A stretch of DNA of 64,000 nt from the NCBI GenBank assembly GCA_003222115.1, contig QHUL01000056.1:16998-80997 (forward strand). Direction: 5' to 3'. The stretch comes from Gemmatimonadota bacterium. GTDB taxonomy: Bacteria > Gemmatimonadota > Gemmatimonadetes > Gemmatimonadales > GWC2-71-9. Every line of letters starts with the position of its first letter. The stretch's first letter is position 1. The translations under genes and the position numbers were made by a program. Under the pieces are notes generated by a model that was not told where the DNA came from, did not search any database, and saw nothing but the letters and a program-made list of their open reading frames with translations. Positions 37,634-63,121 of this stretch are shown here, piece after piece.

Positions 37634-40231
<2,598 letters not shown>

Positions 40232-45301: not shown

Positions 45302-46072
45302 GTGCTGGTCGACGCCCACTGCCACCTCGGCGATGCGGCGTTCGACCGCGACCGGGACGCCGTGCTCGTGCGTGCCCGGGCCGCGGGCGTGGGGCACGTC
45401 GTGGTGATCGGCGGGACGGTGGAGGAGTCGGAGCGGGCGACCGCGCTCGCCCGCGGCGGGCCCGGTCTCTCGGCCACCGCCGGTGTGCATCCCCACGAGG
45501 CGCGGTCCTGGTCGCCGGAAGCGGCGTCCCGCCTGAAGGCGCTGCTCGCCCTACCTGAAGTGGTGGCTGTGGGCGAGACGGGGCTCGATTACCATTACGA
45601 CCATTCGCCGCGCCACGCGCAGCGACGTGCCTTCGAGGCGCAGCTCGCGCTCGGGGCTGAGCTCGGCAAGCCCGTCGTCGTGCACGCCCGCGAGGCGGAC
45701 GACGACGTCGCCGCGATGCTCGCCACGGCGCGTGCCGCGGTGGTGCTGCACTCGTTCAGCTCGGGACCCCAGGTCTTCGCAGCGGGGATGGGGATCGGCG
45801 CGTACTTTTCCTTCTCCGGCATGATCACGTTCAGGAACTGGGGTGCCGCGGTGGCCCTAACCGACTATCCGCCTGACCGCCTCTTGGTCGAGACGGACGC
45901 CCCGTACCTCGCGCCCGTGCCGCACCGCGGTATGCGCAACGAGCCTGCATTCGTGCGCGAGGTCGCGGTCGCGCTCGCCCGCATGCGCGGGGAGGCGCTC
46001 GACACCCTCGGGCAACGGACCACGGAAAACGCGCACCGGCTCTTCGGATCGCGCGTCGCCTCCACGCTCTAG
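45302..46072 (+). CDS. tatD: TatD-family metal-dependent hydrolase
   Basis: VDAHCHLGD, GETGLDYHY and LVETDAPYLAP motifs. Confidence 0.88.
   Translation: MLVDAHCHLGDAAFDRDRDAVLVRARAAGVGHVVVIGGTVEESERATALARGGPGLSATAGVHPHEARSWSPEAASRLKALLALPEVVAVGETGLDYHYDHSPRHAQRRAFEAQLALGAELGKPVVVHAREADDDVAAMLATARAAVVLHSFSSGPQVFAAGMGIGAYFSFSGMITFRNWGAAVALTDYPPDRLLVETDAPYLAPVPHRGMRNEPAFVREVAVALARMRGEALDTLGQRTTENAHRLFGSRVASTL
45857..45880 (+). repeat. Single arm of the octamer array (ctaaccga ctatccgc ctgaccgc) inside tatD coding sequence
   Basis: Three in-phase CTNNCCGN octamers matching arm 2 of the elements at 34622 and 59468. No inverted partner lies nearby. Confidence 0.35.
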
Positions 46073-46085
46073 CCCGAGAGGACCC

Positions 46086-47768: not shown

Positions 47769-48163
47769 TGCGCAAGACCAAAGGCCTGGGCATCGTGGCG
47801 ACCGACGCCGCGCCCCAGGCGATCGGCCCCTACAGCCAAGCCGTCACGACCGATGGGATGATCTACACGGCGGGGCAGATCCCGATCGATCCCGGCACGG
47901 GCCAGGTGGTGGGGAAGACCACCGCCGAGCAGACGGACCAGGTGATGAAGAACCTGCGGGCGATCCTCGAGGCCGCGGGCTCCGCGCTCGACAACGTCGT
48001 CAAGACGACCGTATATCTCGTCGACATGGCCGACTTCCCGCAGATGAACGACGTGTACGCGAAGCACTTCGGGAGGCACAAGCCGGCGCGTTCGACGGTG
48101 CAGGCCGCCGCGCTGCCGAAAGGCGTGCGCGTCGAGATCGACGCGATCGCGCTGCGCGGCTAG
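47768..48163 (+). CDS. ridA: RidA/YjgF family reactive-intermediate deaminase
   Basis: TGATG overlap with fhs. AIGPYSQAV and ARSTVQAAALPKGVRVEIDAIA motifs. Confidence 0.88.
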   Translation: MRKTKGLGIVATDAAPQAIGPYSQAVTTDGMIYTAGQIPIDPGTGQVVGKTTAEQTDQVMKNLRAILEAAGSALDNVVKTTVYLVDMADFPQMNDVYAKHFGRHKPARSTVQAAALPKGVRVEIDAIALRG

Positions 48164-48220
48164 GGGCGCGCCCCCGTACTGCGTTGGCGGGCATGGAGAT
48201 GACGGGGCCGCCGCCGTTTC

Positions 48221-48262
48221 TGTCACGCTGATTTCACGCTGCCGCCGGAGATTGCTTCCGGA
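48221..48262 (+). promoter_or_regulatory. Promoter block P1: direct 8-mer repeat TCACGCTG-N3-TCACGCTG (11-bp period) followed by GAGATT
   Basis: Boxes at 48223-48230 and 48234-48241. GAGATT at 48248-48253. The whole 42-nt block recurs at 48700-48741 (41/42 identical). Confidence 0.5.
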
Positions 48263-48301
48263 TGTCGGGCCTCACCGTGTGACATCGAACCAGGAGGCAG
48301 C

Positions 48302-48451
48302 ATGCCCACCGGAAAGCGCATCAGCCTGAAGCTGACCCCGCAGCAGAAGGAAGAGATCATGAAGGCGACGGGGAAGAAGGCCGAAGAGCTCCAGTTCACC
48401 GTCGAGGAGCTGGAAGAGCGGATCGCGCCACTCAGGACGTACAAGTTCTAG
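48302..48451 (+). CDS. Small acidic Lys/Glu-rich peptide, 49 aa (copy 1); family not recognised
   Basis: Strong SD AGGAGG at 48292-48297, 4 nt before the ATG. MPTGKRISLKLTPQQKEEIMKATGKKAEELQFTVEELEERIAPLRTYKF. Good GC3 bias. Too short for the ORF track. Confidence 0.65.
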   Translation: MPTGKRISLKLTPQQKEEIMKATGKKAEELQFTVEELEERIAPLRTYKF

Positions 48452-48505
48452 CTTGCGAGAGCCTCGCCCCGGTGGTGTCGCTGTATCGACCCTGCGATCC
48501 GAGCC

Positions 48506-48688
48506 GTGGTGGGCGACGACGCTCCGGAGCAGGAGGGCCCGCTGCTCGATCGCATCGTGGTGGAGGTGATCTACACGTTCTCGCGGGCGATCGAGCACAC
48601 GCCCGCGTTCCTGCACGAGGTACACAAGGTGTTGCGGCGAAACGGGATCCGGCGGCTGGATCACGCCGTGCAGCTGCTCACGTTCTGA
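48506..48688 (+). CDS. Hypothetical small protein (60 aa or fewer) between the two peptide copies
   Basis: Protein-like composition (LLDRIVVEVIYTFSRAIEHTPAFLHEVHKVLRRNGIRRLDHAVQLLTF) and nearly all G/C at third codon positions. Start uncertain. Confidence 0.4.
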   Translation: MVGDDAPEQEGPLLDRIVVEVIYTFSRAIEHTPAFLHEVHKVLRRNGIRRLDHAVQLLTF

Positions 48689-48699
48689 GGCGAACGCCG

Positions 48700-48741
48700 T
48701 GTCACGGTGATTTCACGCTGCCGCCGGAGATTGCTTCCGGA
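48700..48741 (+). promoter_or_regulatory. Promoter block P2: second copy of the direct-repeat block (TCACGGTG-N3-TCACGCTG, then GAGATT)
   Basis: Boxes at 48702-48709 and 48713-48720. GAGATT at 48727-48732. Confidence 0.45.
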
Positions 48742-48775
48742 CCTGAAGCTGACCCCGCAGCAGAAGGAAGAGATC

Positions 48776-48880
48776 ATGAAGGCGACGGGGAAGAATGCCG
48801 AGGAGCTGGAGTTCGGCGTCGAGGAGCTGGAAGAGCGGATCGCGCCCCTCAAGTTTGGGGCGAGCGGCGGTCTGCAGTAA
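48776..48880 (+). CDS. Second, 5'-truncated copy of the small acidic peptide (34 aa from the internal Met; the frame is open from 48689)
   Basis: The stretch from 48742 onward is about 93% identical to 48325-48436, but 62 nt carrying the SD and ATG of copy 1 are missing. The retained ATG at 48776 is preceded by aaggaag. The tail diverges (APLKFGASGGLQ versus APLRTYKF). Confidence 0.4.
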   Translation: MKATGKNAEELEFGVEELEERIAPLKFGASGGLQ

Positions 48881-48907
48881 CCGCTGCGCGCGGCCTCGCG
48901 CGCGCCA

Positions 48908-48951
48908 CGCCGGTGATGCGGCCTCCCGGGCCCGTCGCCGGCGGTTTTTTT
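48908..48951 (+). terminator. Intrinsic terminator of the peptide cassette
   Basis: Stem cgccggtga (48908-48916) pairs with tcgccggcg (48935-48943) around an inner GC hairpin. T7 follows at 48945-48951 and overlaps the stop of the convergent regulator gene. Confidence 0.6.
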
Positions 48952-51229
48952 ACCTGCGCAGCGGCTGTGGTGGCTCCGGGGCGGCGAGGTCCAGGTCGCC
49001 GTGCTCGATCCCGCGCGCCGGCGTCGGTTTGCGGCGTGGAGTGCGCGGCGGCTCGGCCCAGCCGGCGAGGCGGAGCAGCTCCGCCGTGGAGCGGTTCACC
49101 GCGTCGGCTTCGGGGCCCGGCTGCGCGAGCGTCGAGGCGACGTCCAGCCAGGACAGCGCTTCTTCGAACGCGTAGCGCCCCGCCGCCGCCTCGCTCGCCA
49201 GCAGCGCGTAACGGTAGGCCAGGGGGCGCTCGCCCCCGCGCTCGGCATGCCGGGCGATCTCGCCGGCTACCTCGCGCAGGCCGGCGGCCGGGGTCACGGT
49301 TTCGAGCGAGAGTGCGATTGCCCGATGCAGCTCGTGCCGGCGCGCGGGGGTGAGCCCGTCGCGCACGACCTCCGCGATCATCGGGTGCGCGCAGCGGTAG
49401 ACGCCCCCCTCTTCGGCCAGGAGGCGACGCTCGACCAGCGCGTCGGCCAGTGCGGCCGCGCGCAGCCGGGACATGCCGTGCACGGACGACACGAGGTCGG
49501 TGCGGATGCCGCGACCGGCGACGGCGACCGTGGCCAGCAGGTCGCGCAGCTCGTACGGCAGCCCCGCCACACGTTCCGCGATGGCGTCGTGCACGGTGCG
49601 AGGCATCTGCAGGTGACCGTAGCTCACCCCGCTCGGCACGCTGGGCGCGACCCACTCCCCCGTGCCCGGCGCGATCGCCAGGAGCCCCTGGGCGAACAGC
49701 GTCTTGATGAGCTCGACGACGTGGAACGGGTTGCCGTCCGTGACCGCGTGTACCCGCTCCGCGAAGCGGCGGCCGCCGGTCGGCGCGCTGATCCGGCCCA
49801 TCTCACGGATCAGGAGCCACACCTCGTCCTTGGTGAGCGGCGCCAGCGCGACCACGCTCGCGTGAGCGTGGGTGCGGAGGGCCCGCGCGAGCCGCGCCGC
49901 CGGGGCATCCCGCTCGAACTCGCCCAGCGTCAGCGTCGCCACGACCGCGACTGGTGAGCGCTCGAAGCGCCGCGCGAGGAAATGCAGCAGCGCGCAACTC
50001 TCGGTGTCGCACCATTGCACATCGTCGATGAACACGATCGTCGGCCGTTCTGCGGCGATCGACAGGACGAGCTGCGCGATTCCCTCGAACAGGCGCCAGC
50101 GGCGATCCACGTCCACCGCCGCGGCGGCCTCGGGCAGCGTGGGAAAGCGCTGCCGCAGCTCCGGGAGCAGCCGCGTGACCTCCGCGAGCCACTCGGGCGC
50201 CGTGCCCGCCAGACCGGGCGTCTGCAGCACGCCCCGCAGCGCCTCCAGGAACGGGCCGTACGGGATGCCGGTTTGCGCGTCGTAGCCGCGCCCCCGCAGC
50301 ACCGTGGCGCCCGCGGTGAGCGCCCAGCGCGAGAAGTCTTCGGCCAGGCGCGTCTTCCCCACACCCGCCTCGCCCTCGATCACGACGACCCGCCCCGCGT
50401 CCCGCGTGACCGCGTCCCAGACGCCCATGAGCGTGCGCCACTGTGAGTCGCGCCCGACGAGGCTCGCTTCGAAGGACGGCGCGGAGGGAGAGAGGTCCGC
50501 GGCACCCCTCCGCCGCGGGCGTTCCGCGTCGCGCTCGATGCGGCGCACCAGCTCGAGCATCGTGGCGCTCGGCGGAGCGGCGATCTCGTGCGCCAGACGG
50601 TCCCGGTACTCCCGGAAGCGCGCCAGGGCCGCGGCACCGTCGCCGGCCAGGTACAGCGACTCGATCACCAGTCTCGCGGCCTCGTCGGACAGAGGCTCGC
50701 AGGCGAGCCAGCGCTCCGCCCAGCCCAGCGCCTCACGCCAGTGCGATTGGGCGATCGCTTCGCGCGCCAGTCCGCGCAGCAGCTCGCCGAAGCGCCGCAG
50801 CAACCAGCGCCGCTTCACGCTGGCCCACTCCTCGAATACCGGCGCGTGACGCAGCGCGAATCCCGTCAGAAACCGGGGGACGTCGAAGCCCGCGGCCTCG
50901 CGCGGGGAGCGCTCCAACGCGTGGAGGAACTGGGTGACGTCGCACTCGATCGATCCCCGCACCTGCACGGCGTGGCGGTCCACGTGGAGCAGGTCGCCCA
51001 CGGCCGCGCGCAACCGCTTCAGCGCCTGGCGCAGCGAGGCGCGGGCTGCCGCATCGGTGGAGTCGCCCCACAACAGGGCGGCGAGCTCCTCACGCGTGTG
51101 GGCGCCGGGCTCCAGTGTCAGATAGGCGAGCAGGGCGATGTTCTTGGCCCCGCCGATGCCGCGCGCGGGCGTGACGTGCGACCGGGCGACGGCCGGCGGA
51201 CCGAGCAGGTTGAGCGCGAGGCCGGCCAC
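48950..51229 (-). CDS. SARP/BTAD-family transcriptional activator fused to an AAA/NB-ARC-like ATPase and a TPR-like C-terminal region
   Basis: Winged-helix LLAYLTLEPGAHTREELAALLWG, BTAD region (EWASVKRRWLLRRF...ALARFREYRDRLAHEI), and Walker A GEAGVGKTRLAEDF. The start is set at GTG 51229 (VVAGLALNLLGPP); the listed ATG at 51358 is also possible. Confidence 0.75.
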   Translation of the reverse strand: MAGLALNLLGPPAVARSHVTPARGIGGAKNIALLAYLTLEPGAHTREELAALLWGDSTDAAARASLRQALKRLRAAVGDLLHVDRHAVQVRGSIECDVTQFLHALERSPREAAGFDVPRFLTGFALRHAPVFEEWASVKRRWLLRRFGELLRGLAREAIAQSHWREALGWAERWLACEPLSDEAARLVIESLYLAGDGAAALARFREYRDRLAHEIAAPPSATMLELVRRIERDAERPRRRGAADLSPSAPSFEASLVGRDSQWRTLMGVWDAVTRDAGRVVVIEGEAGVGKTRLAEDFSRWALTAGATVLRGRGYDAQTGIPYGPFLEALRGVLQTPGLAGTAPEWLAEVTRLLPELRQRFPTLPEAAAAVDVDRRWRLFEGIAQLVLSIAAERPTIVFIDDVQWCDTESCALLHFLARRFERSPVAVVATLTLGEFERDAPAARLARALRTHAHASVVALAPLTKDEVWLLIREMGRISAPTGGRRFAERVHAVTDGNPFHVVELIKTLFAQGLLAIAPGTGEWVAPSVPSGVSYGHLQMPRTVHDAIAERVAGLPYELRDLLATVAVAGRGIRTDLVSSVHGMSRLRAAALADALVERRLLAEEGGVYRCAHPMIAEVVRDGLTPARRHELHRAIALSLETVTPAAGLREVAGEIARHAERGGERPLAYRYALLASEAAAGRYAFEEALSWLDVASTLAQPGPEADAVNRSTAELLRLAGWAEPPRTPRRKPTPARGIEHGDLDLAAPEPPQPLRR

Positions 51230-51274
51230 AACCCCCAGCGGTTTGCGAGGTGGGACTAACCTACGCCCCCGCCG

Positions 51275-51306
51275 GGCGACGGCAAGGGATCCCCGTCGCC
51301 TTGACA
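51275..51306. promoter_or_regulatory. Inverted repeat GGCGACGG-N10-CCGTCGCC abutting a TTGACA hexamer in the divergent intergenic region
   Basis: Arms at 51275-51282 and 51293-51300. TTGACA at 51301-51306. No convincing -10 element follows. Confidence 0.3.
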
Positions 51307-51336
51307 CCCGCGCGGGCAGCCCGCCTTTTCCACCGC

Positions 51337-53277
51337 ATGGCCGACGAGTCCGGCGCACCGGCCGTCCCGGCCGAAGACCTCCGCGTGGAGCTCGAACGCC
51401 TTCGCCTGCTGCACTCGATCAGCCAGGAATTCAACTCCTCACTCGACTTCGACGAGCTGCTCCCCAAGGTTTTCGACACAGTAGTCACCGCGGTCGGCGC
51501 CGCGGGCGGCTCGCTGTGGATCGCGGAAGGCGACGTGCTGCGCTGCAAGCTCGCGCTGGGTGCCGCGAGCCAGAAGCTGATCGGGACCACGATGCCGATC
51601 GGCACCGGCTTCGTCGGCGACGTGGCTCGGAAGCAGCGCACCACGATCGTCAGGGACGCGATGCTGGACGCGCGCTTCCAGCAGCGGGTGGACCGCTCGA
51701 GTACTCTGATCACGACGACCCTGATGGCCACCCCGATGCTGACGAAGGGCATCACGGTCGGCGCGATCCAGGTCGTCAACAAGGTCAGGGGCGACGGCAT
51801 CTTCGATGACCGCGACCGGGAGATCCTGGAGGGGCTGGCGGCGAGCGCGGCGGTGGCGCTCCGCAACGCCCAGCTCCACGCGGCCGAGAAGCGCGCCCGC
51901 GACCTCGCCGTGCTGCTCGAGATCAGCCGCGAGATCACCTCGACGCTCGACCTCGACCACGTGTTGCAGTCCGTGGTGAACCTCGCGTCGCGCGCGCTCA
52001 CCTTCGATCAGGGGGCGGTCGGGCTGCTCGAGAAGCAGCAGTGCGAGATCCGCGCCATCGCGGGCCACGAGCAGGTGGACCAGAAGGGCGAGCGGACCAA
52101 GCGGCTGGCGCGTCGCGCTGCGTGGCTCGTGGAGCGGGGCGAGACCTTTTACCTGCCGGATCGTGCGCGCCCGGCGTCCGACGTCGAGCGCGGCTTCGTC
52201 GCCGCGTTCGGCGCCGAGCTGGAGGCCGAAGAGCTGGCCAGCGGGTTGTACCTGCCGCTCAAGGACGAGGAAGGCATGCTGGGGGTGCTCTTGTTCGAGG
52301 CGAAGCGCCCCGGCTTTGCGAGCGAGACCCAGCGCGAGCTGGCGGAGATCCTCGCCAACCAGACGACCGTGGCGCTGCGCAACGCCCAGCTCTACAACCA
52401 GGTGCCGCTGGTGGACGCCCTCGGTGCGCTCGCCGCCAAGAAGCGCGCGCTCATGCAGCTGCCGCGGCGCCGCCGTCAGCTCTACGCCGGCGCCGTGGTG
52501 GCCGCCATCGCGGGGTTCACGCTGATCCGCTGGCCACTGCGCGTCGACGGAGCGAACCCGACGTTCCGTGCGTCCGCCTACGTCGAGGCGCGGACGCTGG
52601 TGCCGGGGATCGTGGAACGCGTGCTGGTGCACGAAGGGACCGAGGTGGGCCGCGGGGCTCCGATCCTGCAGCTGCGCGACGCCGAGTTGCGGGCGGAGCG
52701 CGAGGCGGCGGCGGCGGAGGCGGCCGCTGCCGAGCGGTCGGCGGCAGTGGCGGCGAGCCGCGGCAATCCGGCGGAGGAGCGGCTGCAGCGCACCCGGGCC
52801 CAGGCTTTCCGCCGGGAGGTGGCCCTGCTCGACGACGAGGTCGGCTCTACCACAGTGCGCGCGCCGGTCAGCGGCATGGTGCTCACGCCGCGACCCGAGG
52901 AGCGCCTGGGCGCTCGGCTCGAAGCCGGGGACCTGGCGGTGACGCTCGGGCGCACGGACACGCTCGAGCTCGAGTTCGGCGTGGCGCAGCGCGACATCGC
53001 TCGCGTGGCCGCGGGCCAGACCGTCCGGCTGCGCGTCGACGCGCTTCCCCAGCGCACCTTCGAAGGCCGCGTCAGCTTTCTCGGCGAGCTGCCGGTCGAC
53101 TCGCTGCCGGACGTCCGCTTTCCCGTGCGGGCCAAGGTCCCCAATCCCGACGGGCTGCTGCGGCCGGGAATGGCGGCGCACGTCAAGGTGCTGACACGGT
53201 CCACGTCGGTCGCCGGCCGCGCGCTGCGCGGGCCGGTGCGCTGGTTGCGGCTCGTGTGGTGGCGGATGTGGGCGTGA
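51337..53277 (+). CDS. Tandem GAF domains, one TM helix, and a HlyD-family membrane-fusion (periplasmic adaptor) domain
   Basis: Two GAF-like blocks, each ending in ..ALRNAQL. TM segment LYAGAVVAAIAGFTLI. HlyD-type lipoyl/coiled-coil/beta-barrel region (VRAPVSGMVL, GQTVRLRVDALP). Confidence 0.75.
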   Translation: MADESGAPAVPAEDLRVELERLRLLHSISQEFNSSLDFDELLPKVFDTVVTAVGAAGGSLWIAEGDVLRCKLALGAASQKLIGTTMPIGTGFVGDVARKQRTTIVRDAMLDARFQQRVDRSSTLITTTLMATPMLTKGITVGAIQVVNKVRGDGIFDDRDREILEGLAASAAVALRNAQLHAAEKRARDLAVLLEISREITSTLDLDHVLQSVVNLASRALTFDQGAVGLLEKQQCEIRAIAGHEQVDQKGERTKRLARRAAWLVERGETFYLPDRARPASDVERGFVAAFGAELEAEELASGLYLPLKDEEGMLGVLLFEAKRPGFASETQRELAEILANQTTVALRNAQLYNQVPLVDALGALAAKKRALMQLPRRRRQLYAGAVVAAIAGFTLIRWPLRVDGANPTFRASAYVEARTLVPGIVERVLVHEGTEVGRGAPILQLRDAELRAEREAAAAEAAAAERSAAVAASRGNPAEERLQRTRAQAFRREVALLDDEVGSTTVRAPVSGMVLTPRPEERLGARLEAGDLAVTLGRTDTLELEFGVAQRDIARVAAGQTVRLRVDALPQRTFEGRVSFLGELPVDSLPDVRFPVRAKVPNPDGLLRPGMAAHVKVLTRSTSVAGRALRGPVRWLRLVWWRMWA

Positions 53278-54251
53278 GCCGCGTCGGCCTCGCCGGGCTT
53301 GCCGCCTGCGCCGGCGCGTTGCTCGCCGCCGGGTGCGGCGGGTCGGCGCGATCGGACACGCCCGACGCCGCGCGCCCGCCGGCTCCGCTCGTGGCGATCG
53401 AGAGTTCCACGGTGGACGTGCCACTGTCGCTGCCCGCCCAGCTCTACGTGGAGCACGACGCACTCGTGTACGCACGCACCACGGGTATCGTCGAATCGGT
53501 GTACGTCGAGCTGGGCGCGCCGGTCGACCAGGGCCAGCTCTTGGCGCAGCTCGAGCACACCGATCAGGAGATCGCGCTGGCGCAGTCCGACCACGCCTAC
53601 CAGGCCGCCCTCCGGGAAGTGGGGCGCGCGCGCGAGCTGATGAAGGTGCGGGCCATCACGACCGCCGACTCCGAGCAGGCCGAGCTCACCTATCAACGGG
53701 CGGAGCTCGCGCAGCGGCAGACCCGGCGCAACTACGAGCTGACCCGGATCGCGGCGCCGTTCGGCGGCGTCGTGACCGCCCGCACGGTGCGACCGGGGCG
53801 TCTCGTGACGCTGGGCGACTCGCTGTTTCGCGTCTCCGCGCTCGGCCCGCTGCGCGTGTCCGTCCGCGTGCCGGAGGGCCCGAGCGCCGGACTCACGCCG
53901 GGGGCCCGGGCGGAAGTGGTGGGGCAGGACGGCGCCGTGGCCCGCGCCACGGTCGTCCGGGCTTCCCCCGCGATTGACGCGGCGAGCGGAACGCGCGAGG
54001 TGCTGGTGGAGCTTGCCCCGGGAGCGCCGTTGCGGCCGGGGGCGAGCGTCACCGTGCGGGTCGGCGCGGAGCGGCGCCGGATCATCGCCATTCCGCCGGG
54101 AGCGCTGGCCGAGCAAGGCTATGTGCTCGTGTGGGAGAACGGGCGCACCGTGCTGCGCGCCGTCACGCTGGGCGCCCGGCTCGCCGACGGCCGCCTCGAG
54201 GTCATGAGCGGCCTCGCCGCCGGCGAGCAGATCGTCAGTCGCGGCCGGTGA
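53274..54251 (+). CDS. HlyD/RND-type periplasmic adaptor lipoprotein
   Basis: GTGA overlap. Lipobox LLAAGC. TGIVESVYVELGAPVDQGQLLAQL, IAAPFGGVVTART. Confidence 0.8.
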   Translation: MSRVGLAGLAACAGALLAAGCGGSARSDTPDAARPPAPLVAIESSTVDVPLSLPAQLYVEHDALVYARTTGIVESVYVELGAPVDQGQLLAQLEHTDQEIALAQSDHAYQAALREVGRARELMKVRAITTADSEQAELTYQRAELAQRQTRRNYELTRIAAPFGGVVTARTVRPGRLVTLGDSLFRVSALGPLRVSVRVPEGPSAGLTPGARAEVVGQDGAVARATVVRASPAIDAASGTREVLVELAPGAPLRPGASVTVRVGAERRRIIAIPPGALAEQGYVLVWENGRTVLRAVTLGARLADGRLEVMSGLAAGEQIVSRGR

Positions 54252-56311
54252 GCCGTCCCCGCCTGCGCTCCGATCTCGTCATGGTGGAGCAGAGCTACCG
54301 CGGCGAGCGGAGCTACATCGTCAAGGACCCCGCGACCCACAAGTACTTCCGGTTCCGGCCGCTCGAGATGATGGTGATGGAGCAGTTCGATGGGGAGCAG
54401 ACGCCGGCCGAGGTGGCCGCCGTGCTGGCCGCGCAGGGCCCGCCGTTCTCGGTCGCGGCGATCGAGAGCTTCGCGCGCAAGCTCGCCCACATGGACCTGT
54501 TGGCGCGCTCGACGGCCGAGCGCTCCGTGCTTCAGATGGAGCGGCTGCGCGCCGAGCGGCAGCGGCGCATCCGCCGCACGCACTACCAGGGGAGCCTGCT
54601 CCGCATGCGCTGGTCGGTCGGCGACCCGGACCGGCTGTTCGACCGGTGGACGCCGCGGCTGCGGTTCTTCTTCTCGCGCCCGTTCCTCGCCCTGTCCGTC
54701 GCCCTGTTCGTCGTGTACTGCGTGATCGCGGTGGCGAAGTGGTCGGATCTGTCGCGCGGCATGGCGGCGCTCTACACGCCCAGCACGTACACCATCGGGA
54801 CCGTCGTGCTCTTCTGGAGCGCCCTGATGGTGGTCGTGTGCGTGCACGAGCTGGGGCACGGCTTCACGTGCAAGTACTTCGGGGGGCAGGTGCACGAGCT
54901 GGGGGCCATGCTGATCTACTTCCAGCCCGCGTTCTACTGTAACGTCAACGACGCGTGGACCTTTCCGGACCTGCGCGCGCGGCTGTGGGTGACGGCCGCC
55001 GGCTCGTGGATCCAGCTCGTGCTCGCGGCGCTCGCGGCGATCGTGTGGTGGCTCGCCCAACCGGGGACGCTGATCTCGCAGCTGGCGCTGTTCCTGGTGG
55101 TGATCGGGGGCGTCACGACTGTCGTGGCCAACGCCAACCCCTTGATCCCGCTCGACGGCTATTACGCGCTCAGTGACTACCTCGGAATTCCCAACCTGCG
55201 GGCCCGGGCGTTGGGCTACATGGCGTGGCTCGTCAAGCGGCACGTCCTGAGACTCACGGTCCCGCCCCCGCCGGCGGACGCTCACGAGCGGTGCGTCTTC
55301 GCGACCTACGGCACGCTCGCGCTGCTCTACTCGACCGGCCTGCTGCTGTTTCTCGTCGCAGCGATTTTCGGATGGGTGGGCCGGACGTGGGGGACGGTCG
55401 GTACCCTGGCCTTCGCCGTCGCGCTGTGGACGATGCTGCGCGGGCGGCTGCGCGCCGCGGCACGTGCCGTCATGGCGTCGCTGCGGGAGCATCGGACCGA
55501 GTGGAGGTCGCCGCGACGGCGCCGGTGGCTTGCCGGCGGGGCCCTCGCGGCCCTGCTGCTCGGCGTCGTGGTGCCGTGGCCCATCACGGTCGGCGGCGCC
55601 TTCACCGCCGCCGCTCCGCTGGAGCTCGACCTCAAGGCACCGGAGGGTGCCGTCGTCGTGCAGGCCCGCGCCGCCGAGGGGACCCGCGTGGCGGCGGGAG
55701 CGCCGGTCCTCGTGTTCCGCGACCCCGACCTCGAGCGGCGCGCCATCGGCGTCCGCCGCCTCGCCGACTCCCTGGCCGCGCTGGAAGGCGCGGCGCGGGC
55801 GGTCGGCCGCACGGACGAGGCGCGGCGGCTCGAGGCCGAGCGTGCGGAACAGGAGGCGCGAGCGGCGAGCCTCGAGGTGCGGCGCCAGGCGCTCACGCTC
55901 CGCTCCCCGGTAACCGCCGTGGTCCTGACGCCGCGCCTGCAGGAACTGGTGGGCCGCCGCTTCCCGAGCGGTGCCGTGGCCGTGCGCCTGGGGACGCCCG
56001 ACTCCGTCGAGCTGCGGGTCGTGCTGGAGCGTGCCGGCGCCACACTCGTGCGGCCGGGGCAGCCGGTCGCCGTGATCGCCTATGCCGACGTCAGCCACAC
56101 CCTCCAGGGCCGGGTGGCCAGCGTGGCGACCGCCGCCGCCGGACAGGCTGGGGACGGCCAGCTCGAGGCCCGCGTGCTGGTGCCGCGCACGGCGGGCGCG
56201 TGGCGGGCCGGGGCGACGGGCGAAGCCAAGATCACCCTCCGCCGCTCGAACCTCATCGGCGCCTTGGTGTGGGCCGTACGCAAGCGCGTCCGCAGCGATC
56301 TTTTGCTCTGA
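54248..56311 (+). CDS. Fusion protein: N-terminal PqqD/winged-helix-like domain, M50 site-2 metalloprotease membrane core, and a C-terminal HlyD-like domain
   Basis: GTGA overlap. HELGH at 54845-54859 and NPLIPLDGYY near 55135-55165 are the two S2P signature motifs. The N-terminus reads YIVKDPATHKYFRFRPLEMMVMEQFDGEQTPAEVAAVL. The C-terminus reads LRSPVTAVVL...GQPVAVIAY. Confidence 0.75.
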   Translation: MSRPRLRSDLVMVEQSYRGERSYIVKDPATHKYFRFRPLEMMVMEQFDGEQTPAEVAAVLAAQGPPFSVAAIESFARKLAHMDLLARSTAERSVLQMERLRAERQRRIRRTHYQGSLLRMRWSVGDPDRLFDRWTPRLRFFFSRPFLALSVALFVVYCVIAVAKWSDLSRGMAALYTPSTYTIGTVVLFWSALMVVVCVHELGHGFTCKYFGGQVHELGAMLIYFQPAFYCNVNDAWTFPDLRARLWVTAAGSWIQLVLAALAAIVWWLAQPGTLISQLALFLVVIGGVTTVVANANPLIPLDGYYALSDYLGIPNLRARALGYMAWLVKRHVLRLTVPPPPADAHERCVFATYGTLALLYSTGLLLFLVAAIFGWVGRTWGTVGTLAFAVALWTMLRGRLRAAARAVMASLREHRTEWRSPRRRRWLAGGALAALLLGVVVPWPITVGGAFTAAAPLELDLKAPEGAVVVQARAAEGTRVAAGAPVLVFRDPDLERRAIGVRRLADSLAALEGAARAVGRTDEARRLEAERAEQEARAASLEVRRQALTLRSPVTAVVLTPRLQELVGRRFPSGAVAVRLGTPDSVELRVVLERAGATLVRPGQPVAVIAYADVSHTLQGRVASVATAAAGQAGDGQLEARVLVPRTAGAWRAGATGEAKITLRRSNLIGALVWAVRKRVRSDLLL

Positions 56312-57735
56312 TGAACCCGACGATCCCCGGCGCCGTCGCGCTCTGGGCGATGCTGGTCGCCGCGCTGCCCAGACCCTCGCGCGCGCAGGAGTGGCTCCCG
56401 CCGGCCGACCGTCAGCTCGCGCGCGACATCCTGCGGGAGCTGATCGAGATCAACACCACGGACTCAGCGGGCCACACCCCGGAGGCCGCCCGGGCCATGG
56501 CGCAGCGCCTCCTGGCCGCGGGCTTTCCCGCCACCGACGTTCAGGTCCTCATCGGCCCCGATGCGCGGCACGGCAACCTGGTCGCGCGCTACCGTGGCAG
56601 CGGCAAGGGCGGGCGTCCGATCCTGGTGATGGCGCACCTCGACGTCGTGCCGGCGCGCCGGGAGGACTGGTCGGTGGACCCGTTCGCGTTCACGGAGAAG
56701 GACGGCTGGTTCTACGGGCGCGGCTCGACCGACAACAAGGCGGGCGCCGCGATGCTCGTGGCGGACTTCATCCGGCTGAAGCGGGAAGGGTTCGTTCCCG
56801 ACCGCGATCTCGTGCTCATGCTGGAGGGCGACGAGGAGACGGCGGGGAGCTGCGTCCAGTGGCTCATCGCGCAGCACCGCGACCTCATCGACGCGGAGTT
56901 CGCCCTCAATACGGACGCGGGCGGCGGCGTGCTGCGCAACGGCAAGCCGGTCTCGTTCACGGTGCAGGCGAGCGAGAAGGTGTACGCGACGTACCTGCTC
57001 GAGGCGCGCGACAAGGGCGGTCACAGCTCCTTGCCGCGGCCCGCCGACAACCCGATCTATCACGTCGCGGCCGCGCTGGTGCGGCTGTCGCAATACCAGT
57101 TCCCGGTACGGCTGAACGAGATCTCACGCGCGTTCTTCGAGCGCTCGGCGCAGCTCGAGACGGGGCAGCTCGCGGTCGACATGCGGGCCGTGCTGCGGAG
57201 TCCCCCCGACCGCGCGGCGCTCGCCCGGCTCTCGGCCGCGCCCTTCTACAACTCGAAGCTCCGCACGACCTGCGTGGCGACGATGCTCGATGCAGGACAC
57301 GCCGAGAACGCGCTGCCGCAGGCGGCGCGGGCGACGGTGAACTGCCGCATCCTCCCAGACCCGCCGCCGGCCGAGGTCGCGGCCGTCCTGGGGCGGATCG
57401 TGGCGGACGATCGGATCGCCATCACCACGACCTACACGCCGATTCCCAGCCCGCCCTCGCCGCTGCGGCCGGAGATCCTACGACCCATCGAGCGGCTGGT
57501 GGCCGTCCAGTGGCCCGGCGTGCCCGTCGTGCCGGTGATGGAAGCGGGTGCGTCTGACGGCCTGTTCCTCCGCAACGCCGGCATCCCGACGTACGGCGTG
57601 TCGGCCGTGTTCGAGGATCCGGACGACATCCGCGCTCACGGGAAGGACGAGCGCATCAGCGCGCAGAGCTTCTACGACGCGACCGTGTACTGGTATCGGA
57701 TGATGCAGGCGCTCACGTCCGGCGGATCGCCCTGA
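56311..57735 (+). CDS. Secreted M20-family metallopeptidase (carboxypeptidase/dipeptidase type)
   Basis: TGATG overlap with the M50 gene. Signal peptide AVALWAMLVAALPRPSRAQ. MAHLDVVP, GRGSTDNKAG and LEGDEE motifs. Confidence 0.8.
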   Translation: MNPTIPGAVALWAMLVAALPRPSRAQEWLPPADRQLARDILRELIEINTTDSAGHTPEAARAMAQRLLAAGFPATDVQVLIGPDARHGNLVARYRGSGKGGRPILVMAHLDVVPARREDWSVDPFAFTEKDGWFYGRGSTDNKAGAAMLVADFIRLKREGFVPDRDLVLMLEGDEETAGSCVQWLIAQHRDLIDAEFALNTDAGGGVLRNGKPVSFTVQASEKVYATYLLEARDKGGHSSLPRPADNPIYHVAAALVRLSQYQFPVRLNEISRAFFERSAQLETGQLAVDMRAVLRSPPDRAALARLSAAPFYNSKLRTTCVATMLDAGHAENALPQAARATVNCRILPDPPPAEVAAVLGRIVADDRIAITTTYTPIPSPPSPLRPEILRPIERLVAVQWPGVPVVPVMEAGASDGLFLRNAGIPTYGVSAVFEDPDDIRAHGKDERISAQSFYDATVYWYRMMQALTSGGSP

Positions 57736-57760
57736 GAGGGGATAGCTTTCCCGGCGGCAC

Positions 57761-57854
57761 GGGGGCGGATTGGGCCTGGTGGTCTGAGCGGTCTTCAAAA
57801 CCGTCTGGGGCTCGCAAGGGCCTCGGTGGGTTCGATTCCCACACGCTCCCGCCA
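57761..57854 (+). tRNA. selC: tRNA-Sec (anticodon UCA), CCA encoded
   Basis: Manual fold. The 8-position acceptor stem GGGGGCGG/ACGCUCCC has 1 GU and 1 terminal mismatch. The D-stem is 6 bp (UGGGCC/GGUCUG) with a 4-nt loop. The anticodon stem GCGGU/ACCGU carries the loop CUUCAAA. The variable arm is 21 nt. The T-arm is GUGGG-UUCGAUU-CCCAC, followed by discriminator G and CCA. Confidence 0.8.
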
Positions 57855-57872
57855 AGGGCCGGCCCAGCCGCC

Positions 57873-58448
57873 TCACCCGGCGCCCGCGACCGACCTGTCG
57901 AAGTGCGGTTTTTCGACCGCGCGGTAGAACGTGAGGATGGCCGCCTGGTCGAACAGCGCCGCGGCGAGCCCCGGCAGTGAGCCGGCCAAGAGCGCCAGGC
58001 CGTAGACTTGCAGATAGCCGACGGTGTACATGGGGTTCTTGAAGAAGCGGTACGGTCCCGCAATGCTCGGGGTGGTCCGATTGGCAGGCCCGAAGAAGTT
58101 CGACCAATAGTAAGCCCGGCCACCGAGCGTGGCCGCGGCCCAGGCTTTGGTGAGCACGCCGACGAGCACGAGCACCGCGCCCGCCGCGATGACGAAGCCG
58201 CGGGGCGACCCGATCGCCAGCGTGTTCCGACTCACGACGCACAGCACTACGAAACTCACCGCATCGCTGCTCATGAGGATCGCCGCCGCCCGGCGGAAGC
58301 GCCGGAATCCCTCCTCGGGGCCGTAGCGCCGCGTGAAGTAGCCTGTGCGCTCCTGACGTCTCAGGGCAAGCCCGACGTAAAGCACGTAAGCGAGCCGGCT
58401 CGCCAGGTGATAGGCGAGGGCGAGCGCGGTCCACACGGGCACGGACAT
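57873..58448 (-). CDS. Membrane methyltransferase of the PEMT/ICMT (isoprenylcysteine carboxyl methyltransferase-like) family
   Basis: Polytopic membrane protein with GPYRFFKNPMYTVGYL near the C-terminus. Confidence 0.6.
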   Translation of the reverse strand: MSVPVWTALALAYHLASRLAYVLYVGLALRRQERTGYFTRRYGPEEGFRRFRRAAAILMSSDAVSFVVLCVVSRNTLAIGSPRGFVIAAGAVLVLVGVLTKAWAAATLGGRAYYWSNFFGPANRTTPSIAGPYRFFKNPMYTVGYLQVYGLALLAGSLPGLAAALFDQAAILTFYRAVEKPHFDRSVAGAG

Positions 58449-58511
58449 GGCGAGAGAAGTTAACCCGCCTACGGCTCACTGCCTCGGTGGCGGACACGTA
58501 TCTTACAGCCT

Positions 58512-59405
58512 CTGATCTCCGCCCACGTCATCGTCAATCCCGCCGCGGGGCGCGGTGCCGGGGAGCGCGCGCTGGACCCCGTGGCACGGGCCTTTCGCCA
58601 GCAAGGGTGGGCCGTCGAAGTGACGCGGACCGGGGGCCCCGGAGAGGGCGCCGCGCTCGCCGCGGCCGCCGTCCGCAGCGGGGCGCAGCGCGTCGTGGCG
58701 GTGGGCGGTGACGGCACCGTCCACGAGGTGGCGAACGGCCTGCTGCGCTCGGGCGGCGCGGTCCCGCTCGGCGTGGTCCCGCTTGGCACCGGTAACGACT
58801 TCGCCAAGCTCGTCGGAGTCCACGGCTGCGCACCCGTCACCGCCGTGGGGCGGCTCGTCACGGCGGATGCCAGGGTGTTCGACGTGGGGCGGGTCGGCGA
58901 CGAGCGCTTCGTCAACAGCCTGGGCCTGGGCTTCGGACCCGCCGTCGTGCGGGCGCGCAACGCGATGCCGGGACTCCGGGGCTTCCTGTCGTATTTCGTG
59001 CCGGTGCTGCGCGCCTACGGCGGGTTCCGCCCGCCGCTCGTCGAGATCCGCTCGGCCGAGTTCCGGGAGCGGGGGTATGTGATGATGGTCGAGGTCTGTA
59101 ACGGGACGACCGCCGGCGGGGACTACCGGTTCGCGCCCGATGCCGACCCCGCGGACGGCCGGCTCGACGTGTGCCTGGTGCGCCGTGTGGGGCTGCCGCG
59201 GTTTCTGCTCGCAATCCCGCGGGTCATGCGCGGCACCCACGGCCGCATGCGCGAGGTGGCCTTGTTCCGCACGCGCCGCCTCATCGTACGATCCCCGGAG
59301 GCGCCGCTGCTGTTGCACCTCGACGGCGAGCTGCGCGAGCCGGGAACGAACGAAGTGACCGTGGCAGTGGAGCCGCGCAAACTCAAGGTGCTGGTGGCGC
59401 GATGA
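58512..59405 (+). CDS. Diacylglycerol kinase-family lipid kinase (YegS/DagK-like); apparent CTG start
   Basis: VIVNPAAGRG and VAVGGDGTVHEVANGL motifs. The NPxxG motif lies upstream of the first canonical start (GTG 58581). The in-frame candidates are CTG 58512 (LISAHVIVNP) or CTG 58479. Confidence 0.75.
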   Translation: MISAHVIVNPAAGRGAGERALDPVARAFRQQGWAVEVTRTGGPGEGAALAAAAVRSGAQRVVAVGGDGTVHEVANGLLRSGGAVPLGVVPLGTGNDFAKLVGVHGCAPVTAVGRLVTADARVFDVGRVGDERFVNSLGLGFGPAVVRARNAMPGLRGFLSYFVPVLRAYGGFRPPLVEIRSAEFRERGYVMMVEVCNGTTAGGDYRFAPDADPADGRLDVCLVRRVGLPRFLLAIPRVMRGTHGRMREVALFRTRRLIVRSPEAPLLLHLDGELREPGTNEVTVAVEPRKLKVLVAR

Positions 59406-59890
59406 GACAGCCGGTCAGGCGGTCAGGCGGTCAGGCGGTCAGGGGCCTCGCCTTGCTGACGCTCGTTCTATCCGCCTATCCGTCTAACCGCCTATCCGCC
59501 CAGGTTCCCACTGACACCGTCACTCCCCCCGCAGACACGTCCCATCGCTTGAAGCCATTCGCGGCCGCGTGGCGCTCGCTCCTGATACCCGGTTGGGGCC
59601 AGGCGGCGCTGGGGCGCGACGTCGCGGGCGCGGTGCTGGCGTCCTGGGAGGGCGTGACGATCATGATGACCGTCAAAGCGCGGCAGGAGCTACACTACCT
59701 CGAGCAGTCGGGCTCGGGGAACGTGCAGGCCAAGCGCCAGCAGGTCCAGGATTGGCTCGTCCTGTGGATCTTCAATCACCTGTTCGCGGGCGCCGAGGCG
59801 TTCGTGTCGGGCCACCTCCAGGACTTCCCCAAGGAGCTGCACGTCCAGCCCCTCCCCGGCGGGATCGGAGTCAGCATCCCGATTCCGTGA
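59402..59890 (+). CDS. Hypothetical secreted or membrane protein whose N-terminal signal region is encoded by an octamer-repeat element
   Basis: ATGA overlap with the kinase gene. MRQPVRRSGGQAVRGLALLTLVLSAYPSNRLSAQ, with LIPGWGQ later in the protein. Confidence 0.5.
   Translation: MRQPVRRSGGQAVRGLALLTLVLSAYPSNRLSAQVPTDTVTPPADTSHRLKPFAAAWRSLLIPGWGQAALGRDVAGAVLASWEGVTIMMTVKARQELHYLEQSGSGNVQAKRQQVQDWLVLWIFNHLFAGAEAFVSGHLQDFPKELHVQPLPGGIGVSIPIP
59411..59499. repeat. Inverted pair of tandem octamer arrays (GCGGTCAG x4 / CTAWCCGY x4)
   Basis: Arm 1 at 59411-59442 is ccggtcag gcggtcag gcggtcag gcggtcag. A 25-nt spacer follows. Arm 2 at 59468-59499 is ctatccgc ctatccgt ctaaccgc ctatccgc. Confidence 0.85.
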
Positions 59891-60620
59891 AGGTCCGCAT
59901 CTCTATCCCGTCTTTCGTGACGATCGCGTACCGGTAGCCGTCGAGAAATGCGCCGGGGTTGAGGTAGGCTCGCCCGTCCGGCAGCTGCTCGCACGCCGGC
60001 CGGTGCGTATGCGCGAGCACGACGAGGTCGAGGTCGGGGCGGCGCTCGAGCATCGTCTTCGCGTACGCGCTCTGGGCGCGCGCCGCGCGGTCCAGCACCG
60101 CCCGGTCGCGCGTGTGGTCGGCGAGCTTGCCCGACAGCTGGTCCGCGATCCAGAACCCGACGCTCGGGTGGAGCGCCCGGAAGACGCCGATCGTGATCGG
60201 ATGGCGCGTGACGCGGTGCATCAGTGTCGCGCTCCAGTGCTGCTCGCTGAGCCCGTCGCCGTGCGCCACGAAGGCCCGCCGCCCCGCCAGCTCCAGCTCC
60301 GCCTCGCCGGCGTGGAACGCGATGCCCAGGTCTTTGATGAGGAAGTCGCCGCCCCAACGGTCGTGGTTGCCGCCGACGAAGGTGATCGGCATCCCGCGCG
60401 CCCGCAGCGCCTGCAGCTTCGCGACGCTCGTGAAGTGCCGCCGCGGGACCACGGAGCCGTACTCGAACCAGAAATCGAACAGGTCGCCGTTGATGAGCAG
60501 TGCGTCGCCCAGGTCGGGTGCGGCCTCGAGGAACGCGTGGAAGGCGGCGGCGACGGCGGGCGCCGCCTGTCCCAGGTGAGCATCGGCGACGACGAGGACA
60601 CGCGCGGCTGGCACGGGCAC
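59871..60620 (-). CDS. lpxH: UDP-2,3-diacylglucosamine diphosphatase LpxH-like metallophosphoesterase
   Basis: VVADAHLG, INGDLFDFW and GGNHD motifs. Confidence 0.75.
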   Translation of the reverse strand: MPVPAARVLVVADAHLGQAAPAVAAAFHAFLEAAPDLGDALLINGDLFDFWFEYGSVVPRRHFTSVAKLQALRARGMPITFVGGNHDRWGGDFLIKDLGIAFHAGEAELELAGRRAFVAHGDGLSEQHWSATLMHRVTRHPITIGVFRALHPSVGFWIADQLSGKLADHTRDRAVLDRAARAQSAYAKTMLERRPDLDLVVLAHTHRPACEQLPDGRAYLNPGAFLDGYRYAIVTKDGIEMRTFTESGC

Positions 60621-60699
60621 AAGCTAGGAACGGGGGGAAAGGCCCGCAAGCGCGTCCGTCATTTGACATTTGGGAAGCGGCCGGGGATTTTGCCCCGGC

Positions 60700-61116
60700 G
60701 TGATCACCGATATCACCGTTCGCGTCAACTACTCCGAGACCGACCAGATGGGCGTGGTGTATCACGCCAACTACCTCGTCTGGTTCGACCGCGCGCGCAC
60801 CGAGCTCATGCGGGGGACCGGGCTCACGTACAAGGAGCTCGAGCAGCAGGGGGTCTACCTCGCCGTGTCCGAGGTGCACATCCGCTATCTCGCGCCGGCC
60901 CGCTACGACGACCCGATCCGCATCCGCTGCTGGGTGCGCGAGCTGGCGTCGCGGCGCGTCACGTTCGGGTACGCGGTCGAGCACGCGGAGCAGGGCACCC
61001 TGCTCGCCACCGGCGAGACGGCGCTGCTCTCGCTCACGCACCGGCACACCCTGACCCGACTTCCCGACCACGTCCGTGCGCTGCTCCAGGCGACGCCCGA
61101 TCCCGTTCAGCTGTAG
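60700..61116 (+). CDS. YbgC/4HBT-family acyl-CoA thioesterase
   Basis: VRVNYSETDQMGVVYHANYLVWFDRART hot-dog fold signature. GTG at 60700. Confidence 0.8.
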   Translation: MITDITVRVNYSETDQMGVVYHANYLVWFDRARTELMRGTGLTYKELEQQGVYLAVSEVHIRYLAPARYDDPIRIRCWVRELASRRVTFGYAVEHAEQGTLLATGETALLSLTHRHTLTRLPDHVRALLQATPDPVQL

Positions 61117-63121
61117 CCTCGCGCTGCTGCTGCTCGGCGCCGCGCGGGCGCCCGCTCAGCAGCCGGACGAGGTGCTCGTCGCCGAGCTCGCCCGCGTGCT
61201 CGCCGCGGCGGACGCGCGCGCATTCGACGCCGCGCTGCTGCGCAACGCGCTCGGGCACGCCCGGCCTGCCGTGCGACGGCAGGCGGCACTCGCCGCGGGG
61301 CGGATCGGCGATCCGGCGGCGGTCGACCTCCTGGTCGCGGCGCTGCGCGACTCCGATCGCACGGTCCAGGCGGCGGCGGCGTTCGCACTGGGGCTGCTGA
61401 AGGATCCCCGCGCCGTCGAGCCGCTCGCCGCGCTGGTGCGCGCGGTGGCGCCGGCGCAGCAAGGGGCGCCCGAAGTGGAGGCCGTGACGGCGCTCGCGAA
61501 GATCGGTGGGGACCAAGCGGCGCGCGCGCTGGGCGATCTTCTGGGCAGCGGCTCGCGGCCGGGCATCGCGCCACCCCCCGCCGTGAGCGCGGCGCTGCTC
61601 GAGGCGTGGCGCCTCGGCGCCCAGGCTCCCATCGCGGCGCTGCTTGGGTATGCGGAGGACGCGGACGCCGACGCGCGCTGGCACGCGGCATACGCGCTCG
61701 GGCGGCTGCGCGCCGGCGCCGGCGTGCCCATGCTGCTGGCCGCGCTGCGCGACCGGGAGCCATTCGTCCGCGCGACCGCCCTGCGCGGTCTCACGCGCGC
61801 AGCCGCGGACAGCGCGCGGCTCGAGCCCGGCCGAGTCGCGGGCGCGGTCCGCCTGTTGCTCGGGGATGGCGACCCGGCCGTGCGCATCAACGCGCTCCGC
61901 GCCCTCGCGAGCTTCCGCGACTCGACGCTCGCCGCGGGGGCGGCCCCGCTCGCCACCGATCCCGACGTGAACGTCGCGGTGCAGGCCGAGACGACGCTGG
62001 GCGCGTTGGGGGGGAGTGGGGCGGTGCGGGCGCTCGCCGCCGGCCTACGGAGCGCCGTGTTTGCTCTGCGGCGCCAGGCGGTGATCGGGCTTGCTCAGGC
62101 GGACAGCGTCGCGGGTGTGGGCGCCGCGGCGGCGCTTGCGAGCGACCCCGACTGGCGGTGGCGCAGCGTGGCCTGCGAGGCGTTCGGCGCCGCGCGCGAT
62201 CGCGCGCGCCTCGAGGGGGCGCTCGCAGACCCGGACGGGCGCGTGGTGGCGGAGGCGCTGCAGGCGCTCGGGCGGGTCGTCGCGGACTCGGACGCCGCGC
62301 TGCTCGCCCGCGCGCGCGAGCTGCTCGGGCACGCCGATCCCGCCGTGCGCAGCGTCGCGGCGGACCTGCTCGCCCGCCGGCCCGATGTCGCCGACGTCGA
62401 TCGCTTGGTCACGGCGTACCAGAGGGCGGCAGGCGATCCGTTCGACGACGCGCGGCTCTCAGCCGTCGCCGCGCTCGGCGCCGTGGCGCGCGCGGGCGCC
62501 GAGGGCCGGCTGCGGGTGGCAGCCCGGTTCGTGGCCGCGGTGCCCCGCCCGGACGACTACCTGGTGCGGCGGGTTGCGGCCGACCGGCTCCCCGACGCCG
62601 CAGAGGCCTGGGGCCCCGTCGTCCCGATCGCCACGGGCAAGACGGACGCCGACTACCGGGACGCGGTGCGGCGCGTGCTGCTGCCCGCGCTTGAGGGCCG
62701 GGCGCCGCCCCGCGTGACCCTCGAGACGGACCGGGGGAGCCTCGTGGTGGAGCTGCTCCCGGCCGAGGCGCCGCTCACGGTGGCCGCCTTCCTTGCGCTC
62801 GTCGAGCGGCGCTACTTTGATGGCGCGCGCTGGCATCGGGTCGTGCCCAACTTCGTCGCGCAGGACGGGGATCCGCGCGGCGACGGGTGGGGCGGCCCCG
62901 GCTTCGTGCTCCGGGACGAGGTGAATCCCACGCGTTACGAGACGGGTACGATCGGCATGGCGCTTTCCGGGCCCGATACGGGCGGCAGCCAGTTCTTCAT
63001 CACCCACTCCGCCCAGCCGCACCTCGACGGCACCTACACCGTCTTCGGTCGCGTCGTGGCCGGCCTCAACGTGCTCGCGGGCGTCGCCCAGGGCGATCGC
63101 ATCCGCAGCATCCACCGCTGA
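61076..63121 (+). CDS. Secreted HEAT-repeat protein fused to a cyclophilin-type peptidyl-prolyl isomerase
   Basis: Signal-like LALLLLGAARAPAQQ. About 10 HEAT/PBS-lyase-like repeats (D..VR..AA.ALG). C-terminal WHRVVPNFVAQDGDPRGDGWGGPG...GGSQFFIT. Confidence 0.75.
   Translation: MRCSRRRPIPFSCSLALLLLGAARAPAQQPDEVLVAELARVLAAADARAFDAALLRNALGHARPAVRRQAALAAGRIGDPAAVDLLVAALRDSDRTVQAAAAFALGLLKDPRAVEPLAALVRAVAPAQQGAPEVEAVTALAKIGGDQAARALGDLLGSGSRPGIAPPPAVSAALLEAWRLGAQAPIAALLGYAEDADADARWHAAYALGRLRAGAGVPMLLAALRDREPFVRATALRGLTRAAADSARLEPGRVAGAVRLLLGDGDPAVRINALRALASFRDSTLAAGAAPLATDPDVNVAVQAETTLGALGGSGAVRALAAGLRSAVFALRRQAVIGLAQADSVAGVGAAAALASDPDWRWRSVACEAFGAARDRARLEGALADPDGRVVAEALQALGRVVADSDAALLARARELLGHADPAVRSVAADLLARRPDVADVDRLVTAYQRAAGDPFDDARLSAVAALGAVARAGAEGRLRVAARFVAAVPRPDDYLVRRVAADRLPDAAEAWGPVVPIATGKTDADYRDAVRRVLLPALEGRAPPRVTLETDRGSLVVELLPAEAPLTVAAFLALVERRYFDGARWHRVVPNFVAQDGDPRGDGWGGPGFVLRDEVNPTRYETGTIGMALSGPDTGGSQFFITHSAQPHLDGTYTVFGRVVAGLNVLAGVAQGDRIRSIHR

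Follow-up and report, generated by a model that had tools for sequence, protein, structure and literature searches.

The window (the whole 64-kb stretch of DNA that was analyzed, from an uncultured soil Gemmatimonadota bacterium) carries at positions 57761-57854 a genuine, canonical bacterial selC gene, encoding the selenocysteine tRNA (tRNA-Sec). Because the tRNA is conserved, we consider it highly probable (about 93%) that this selC is functional, and that the organism carries the selenocysteine (Sec) machinery elsewhere in its genome and uses the tRNA. The gene is a member of a known family, is found by standard annotation tools and is already present in public MAGs, among them 'Gemmatimonadetes bacterium isolate AG23' (QHUR01000185.1; AG23 below). 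The gene and its anticodon are as follows:

57761-57854, plus strand: selC, tRNA-Sec(UCA) with encoded CCA, 94 nt (ARAGORN, Rfam, fold, identity with AG23, covariation)
57795-57797, plus strand: anticodon TCA (UCA, which reads UGA), inside the loop CTTCAAA at 57793-57799 (sequence, ARAGORN)

The only tRNA that ARAGORN reports in the 64 kb is a tRNA-SeC at 57761-57854 on the plus strand with tca at position 35, in agreement with the original prediction of a tRNA-Sec at this position. That prediction held that a covariance-model score below threshold would speak against the gene; the match to the Rfam tRNA-Sec model RF01852 reaches 79.1 bits, well over the gathering score of 47 (E 1.2e-14), spans 57761-57850 and model positions 1-91 of 91, and is the only match in the window when all 4227 Rfam families are scanned. 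The unconstrained minimum free energy (MFE) fold of the 94 nt is the Sec cloverleaf (-46.9 kcal/mol), and the features from which the gene had been recognized by hand are each present. UCA lies in a 7-nt CUUCAAA loop, closed in the MFE fold by a 5-bp anticodon stem; the D-stem has 6 bp (U11-G26 to C16-G21, with three G.U pairs) and a 4-nt loop, UGGU; a 21-nt variable arm between the anticodon and T stems forms a hairpin with a 7-8 bp stem and a GCAA tetraloop (-12.1 kcal/mol); and G73, at tRNA position 91, is followed by an encoded CCA at 92-94. The extended acceptor stem, which had also been proposed, has 8 nt per strand, of which seven form standard pairs and the eighth a G8.A83 mismatch; together with the 5-bp T-stem on which it stacks, it makes a 13-position helix of 8+5 spacing. 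An alternative register that pairs G8 with C82 and bulges A83 is 4.5 kcal/mol worse (-40.9 versus -45.4 kcal/mol for the 8+5 cloverleaf).

The fold-energy z-score (-2.23; 5 of 200 shuffles are equally good) is weak because a sequence of 72% GC folds well anyway; what carries the identification as tRNA-Sec is the covariance model and the covariation rather than the energy. A sixth pair can be added to the anticodon stem (57787-57806) only if U44 is bulged out, and otherwise the top of the stem has a mismatch; the bulged model is supported by the covariation of pair 28:45 from G-C to C-G. The eighth acceptor position (57768/57843) is a purine-purine mismatch clade-wide, being G.A in the window, G.G at locus L087 and A.G at locus L078.

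When the tRNA is set against characterized members of the family, most of its architecture is familiar. Like E. coli selC and RF01852, it has UCA in CUUCAAA, the 8+5 arrangement, a 6-bp/4-nt D-arm, a long variable hairpin, G73 and CCA. The eighth acceptor pair of E. coli selC is C-G; the tRNA studied here differs in having G.A at that position, in an anticodon stem that attains 6 bp only with the bulged U44, in the make-up of its variable arm (a 7-bp stem with a GCAA tetraloop) and in its uncultured Gemmatimonadota host. The sequence is too diverged for a blastn search with the tRNA to return any match in E. coli genomes. Santesmasses et al. 2017 (PMC5330540) describe bacterial tRNA-Sec whose acceptor/T helix has 12 bp, in a 7/5 fold, with bulges at 43a and elsewhere. 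The window tRNA resembles these 7/5 variants in that no more than 7 of its acceptor pairs are standard and that the 3' strand of its anticodon stem probably contains a bulge. Unlike them, it has 8 nt between the T-stem and G73, which makes it canonical 8+5, and its eighth position is a conserved purine-purine mismatch with no missing pair or bulge. Bacterial tRNA-Sec follow the 8+5 rule and G73 is reported to be essential (PMC5330540).

The original prediction also stated that selA, selB, selD and obvious selenoprotein genes are absent from the window, and on this point Pfam, gene calls, tblastn, the scan of TGA codons and the conservation of stop codons all agree. From about -3.4 kb to +73 kb (about 76 kb) we found no selA, selB, selD, fdh or in-frame-TGA gene, using Pfam on all substantial open reading frames (ORFs) together with independent metagenome gene calls with Pfam tags, which cover the window, about 3.4 kb to its left and 9 kb to its right. 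The annotated genes of the window and flanks are all housekeeping or unrelated to selenium machinery: a MoxR/VWA/BatD operon, mutL, miaA, birA, coaX, groES/EL, serS, uvrD, gatCAB and aroA, then rimP-nusA-infB-rbfA-truB-ribF, secDF, tatD, fhs and ridA ahead of a block of about 9.6 kb, and beyond this block genes for PEMT, DAGK, a metallophosphoesterase, a thioesterase, HEAT-PPIase, Tricorn, LptE and a PQQ dehydrogenase. With E. coli K-12 SelA, SelB and SelD as tblastn queries, only an IF2 GTPase domain was matched in the window and flanks; the SelB-like match, at 38723-39592, was accordingly rejected as the GTPase domain of IF2/infB. Applied to 120 other tRNA-Sec loci, the identical search detects adjacent sel genes at about 50, a positive control that makes the negative result in the window reliable.

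For selenoprotein genes, a codon-model scan of every TGA found coding sequence on both sides only at same-frame gene boundaries and in antisense shadows. In tblastx against syntenic relatives, conservation stops exactly at the annotated stops, with no read-through; the raw Sec/Cys test was dominated by out-of-frame HSPs and a frame filter was applied. No gene with an in-frame UGA and a SECIS was thus found in the roughly 76 kb inspected, the remaining genome being >95% of the whole. Several TGA codons were considered and rejected. The one within 21334-22110 (minus strand) separates two genes, Roadblock/LC7 and then a response regulator, with a GTG start four codons past the TGA. The TGA at 31970 (within 31550-33223, minus strand) is likewise a gene boundary, with an ATG three codons later; here a 417-aa membrane protein is followed in the same frame across the TGA by a 137-aa protein. 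To a naive scan, each of these minus-strand pairs, with 2-4 codons between its members, looks like one gene with an in-frame UGA, but the members are separate genes. A third TGA, flagged by the codon model at 48686, is the stop of a 60-aa ORF that is followed by an in-frame small-peptide gene.

The sole component of the Sec pathway in the window besides the tRNA is a housekeeping gene:

22776-24062, plus strand: serS, seryl-tRNA synthetase (Pfam Seryl_tRNA_N and tRNA-synt_2b)

Sec synthesis begins with the loading of serine onto tRNA-Sec by SerRS (PMC13188914, PMC5330540). On the model of the established bacterial pathway, the SerRS of this organism would charge the tRNA with serine, SelA together with selenophosphate derived from SelD would convert the Ser-tRNA to Sec-tRNA-Sec, and SelB would bring the product to an in-frame UGA followed by a SECIS hairpin. 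The genes for SelA, SelB, SelD and the selenoproteins would be placed elsewhere in the genome, as they are in E. coli. A genome signature of Sec decoding is provided by selB with selC, which always coincide with selA, selD and selenoproteins (PMC1273633), and a G73 tRNA-Sec has been described as a reliable genome-level marker (Santesmasses et al. 2017, PMC5330540).

The missing sel neighbors are normal and not notable, because the E. coli K-12 selC (b3658) is equally isolated: it lies at 3,836,222, 75 kb from selB-selA (3,758,017-3,761,249) and 2 Mb from selD (1,846,965), so that a 64-kb window there shows none of the others either. Such an unlinked selC is a textbook arrangement; clusters of selD-selA-selB-selC are also common in many bacteria. 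Compared with these sel operons the window gene belongs to the same tRNA family, and selA, selB or selD lies within a few kb of the tRNA at the roughly 50 of 120 sampled loci noted above, whereas in the Gemmatimonadota clade none of 13 loci has an adjacent sel gene and the neighbors are fhs-ridA upstream and a conserved hypothetical gene (hyp162) downstream. At two of the sampled loci the tRNA-Sec pattern matched twice: L030 (1239-1291 and 6378-6430) and L088 (9966-10020 and 10133-10187), the copies in L088 being in tandem, about 170 nt apart, beside selA-selB. Several tRNA-Sec genes in one genome are known (PMC5330540).

When one genome of each GTDB species was scanned for the tRNA pattern, a single record was returned, AG23, in which the tRNA is identical at 94 of 94 positions while the shared DNA (window 57723-61603) is 88.3% identical. 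The tRNA is also identical in seven metagenome contigs from the same population, and the locus of the window occurs on many soil-metagenome contigs (CRIT18 ENA assemblies, JGI 3300026528 and 3300026538) at 99.5-99.99% identity. The 120 loci were sampled by a looser tRNA-Sec pattern scan of metagenomes, and the 13 of them that bear the clade signature are mostly syntenic with the window flanks, with flanking proteins 45-74% identical. The tRNA has therefore been kept at one chromosomal position over deep divergence.

In 15 aligned sequences, 96.9% of the cells in the four core helices are paired (42-56% in slid registers), and in six pairs both sides have changed, among them 3:92 (G-C/A-U), 5:90 (G-C/C-G) and 28:45 (G-C/C-G); none of 500 shuffles attains the observed values. 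The compensatory changes fall in three helices, and UCA, G73 and CCA are invariant in all 15; the search pattern itself dictated the inner anticodon stem and the T-arm, whose own invariance in the alignment is therefore uninformative. In the D-stem 98.9% of cells are paired across relatives, with one pair changed on both sides. Unaided, 14 of the 15 adopt the cloverleaf fold, and the variable arms of the relatives are hairpins built from differing sequences. Judged by these comparisons, the tRNA-Sec is under purifying selection and is not a relic, because it is identical to AG23 amid flanks of about 88% identity and because its position has been kept with compensatory changes.

The same data bear most directly on the alternative that selA, selB and selD have been lost in this lineage and that the tRNA-Sec is a decaying, functionless leftover. 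Such a history would fit the lack of sel machinery or a selenoprotein gene within about 76 kb, the G.A mismatch at the eighth acceptor pair, and the fact that we found no mention of Sec use in Gemmatimonadota in the literature and supplements searched. A homology search seeded with the SelB of L087, the Methylomirabilota/NC10 locus with the most similar sel-linked tRNA, adds nothing to either side, since all 120 matches listed were from Methylomirabilota/NC10 and the search is uninformative on Gemmatimonadota. A decaying gene, however, is hard to reconcile with zero substitutions in 94 nt against AG23, with retention of the locus across 45-74% protein identity, or with compensatory changes in three helices around an invariant UCA, G73 and CCA. 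The G8.A83 mismatch is itself conserved throughout the clade and is therefore a lineage feature, not decay. We regard loss of the pathway as very unlikely.

Still less probable is that the gene encodes a Sec-shaped suppressor tRNA that places Ser or Cys, and no selenium, at UGA, in the manner of the allo-tRNA and selC*-type tRNAs reportedly described from metagenomes by Mukai et al. 2017. The slightly unusual helices (the G.A eighth pair and the bulged anticodon stem) and the lack of sel machinery in the 76 kb inspected are compatible with such a tRNA, but those variants depart from tRNA-Sec in anticodon, discriminator base or helix lengths, and the window gene has the canonical UCA, G73, 8+5 and 6/4 D-arm and scores far over the Rfam threshold. 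That the call itself is mistaken, the sequence being a common tRNA-Ser, tRNA-Leu or tRNA-Tyr with a long variable arm, or a structure that GC-rich DNA forms by chance, has next to no likelihood: a z-score of only -2.23, as 72% GC folds well, would allow it, but Rfam clan competition leaves tRNA-Sec standing at E 1.2e-14, the UCA, the 6-bp D-stem with its 4-nt loop and the 13-position helix are foreign to tRNA-Ser and tRNA-Leu (PMC5330540), and the orthologues covary. A functional selC thus remains the preferred reading.

The genes around selC have a history of their own. The features adjoining the tRNA are as follows:

45302-48163, plus strand: TatD-FTHFS-RidA, ancestral upstream neighbors of tRNA-Sec (Pfam, gene calls, synteny; FTHFS is PYP21239)
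48164-57735: lineage-specific block of about 9.6 kb, from RidA to the tRNA (RidA is directly upstream in relatives)
56311-57735, plus strand: M20 family peptidase, subfamily PRK09133 (Pfam, NCBIfam; PYP21245)
57723-57760, plus strand: 38-nt leader common to the window and AG23 (AG23 homology begins at 57723)
57873-58448, minus strand: PEMT-family methyltransferase, convergent (Pfam, gene calls; PYP21246.1, DMD53_07970)
59402-59890, plus strand: hyp162, conserved hypothetical, ancestral downstream neighbor (tblastn synteny, 8 diverged loci)

The original prediction placed the tRNA immediately downstream of the M20 peptidase gene. This gene does end only 25 nt before the tRNA, but the arrangement is specific to the population, neither AG23 nor the deeper relatives having M20 upstream of the tRNA. 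It has no selenium link either, since the M20 protein scores 614.6 bits against the NCBIfam model PRK09133 (cutoff 349) and its assignment as the selenium-linked hydrolase YgeY was rejected (NF009555, 59.5 bits against a cutoff of 321). In diverged relatives the ridA stop lies 1-20 nt ahead of tRNA-Sec, in AG23 the gene upstream of the tRNA encodes a PKD-domain protein on the opposite strand, and in L121 an alpha-amylase gene is upstream of the tRNA (upstream of L121 position 1312). The 5' flank of tRNA-Sec is hence a synteny breakpoint, occupied by RidA in most relatives, M20 in the window, PKD in AG23 and alpha-amylase in L121. On the evidence of synteny, the ancestral order of the clade is TatD-FTHFS-RidA-tRNA-Sec-hyp162, the block of about 9.6 kb is an insertion on the 5' side of the tRNA, and the adjacency of M20 is lineage-specific.

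On the 3' side, the PEMT stop codon is 18 nt past the tRNA end. Both PEMT and DAGK are inserted 3' of the tRNA in the window and AG23, while L116 and L042 share DAGK only. Downstream of tRNA-Sec hyp162 is constant across the clade, with only residues about 50-162 conserved and only weak DUF5683/LIC11435-like matches; past it, the order metallophosphoesterase, 4HBT thioesterase, HEAT-PPIase recurs in relatives.

An origin of the 9.6-kb block as a tRNA-targeted integrative island was considered and rejected: there is no integrase among the gene calls, a search for 18-mers of the tRNA with up to 2 mismatches found none in the rest of the window, and the block has no significant flanking repeats and no att-like repeat of the tRNA. 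In content, the block looks like a peptide maturation and export cluster. The RiPP-like cluster spans 48164-56311 and includes the following genes:

48302-48451 (49 aa) and about 48707-48880: two paralogous small-peptide genes
48950-51229, minus strand: BTAD/AAA regulator
51337-53277: GAF-HlyD, membrane-fusion protein
53274-54251: RND-type adaptor, membrane-fusion protein
54281-56311: HExxH intramembrane metalloprotease fused to an HlyD-like domain

The small peptides have the common motif LKLTPQQKEEIMKATGK..EEL.F.VEELEERIAPL, and their region contains direct repeats of 110 nt (94%) and 42 nt. Consecutive accession numbers suggest that the small peptides are unannotated in the NCBI record. The region differs by insertions and deletions among near-identical strains: L011 (Scaffold_38, 12078-12448) has one 53-aa gene in a 370-nt gap, and the corresponding stretch of about 790-850 nt in the window (48164-48949) and L001 (19499-20351) holds two or three small genes. 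From its sequence, the HExxH fusion protease resembles RiPP-maturation proteases below the model cutoff; it scores 198.7 bits against the daptide-biosynthesis metalloprotease model NF041824 (cutoff 300) and also matches the YydH/LiaK epipeptide protease model.

A consensus scan found no sigma-70 promoter and no intrinsic terminator around tRNA-Sec. The tRNA would probably be expressed either on a transcript that reads through from the upstream gene and is then processed by RNase P, as the tight spacing to that gene suggests, or from a non-consensus promoter in the leader. The 38-nt leader, the first 13 nt of which are the 3' end of the M20 gene, is kept only with AG23 and not in deeper relatives. 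Because AG23 has this leader with its upstream gene on the opposite strand, the leader may be a candidate non-consensus promoter, or else a processing leader.

From the ancestral gene order one could go further and propose that selC was once the last gene of a tatD-fhs-ridA-selC unit, coupling the supply of tRNA-Sec to formate/one-carbon metabolism, that the junction 5' of selC is a recurrent insertion site with lineage-specific cargo (the peptide maturation/export cluster in the window, the PKD protein in AG23, the alpha-amylase in L121), and that the locus is early evidence of Sec decoding in Gemmatimonadota. Formate dehydrogenase, the partner enzyme in that metabolism, is the commonest bacterial selenoprotein. 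We consider this extended scenario unlikely as a whole.

For tRNA-Sec biology itself the gene adds nothing new, and its relevance is mainly to annotation. There are modest extras in that Sec use by the phylum is apparently undocumented in the literature searched and that the 5' flank of selC is variable in the lineage. With selC present, this Gemmatimonadota population probably uses selenocysteine, and genes that appear truncated at TGA in the MAGs of this population, fdhA and redox proteins especially, merit re-examination.
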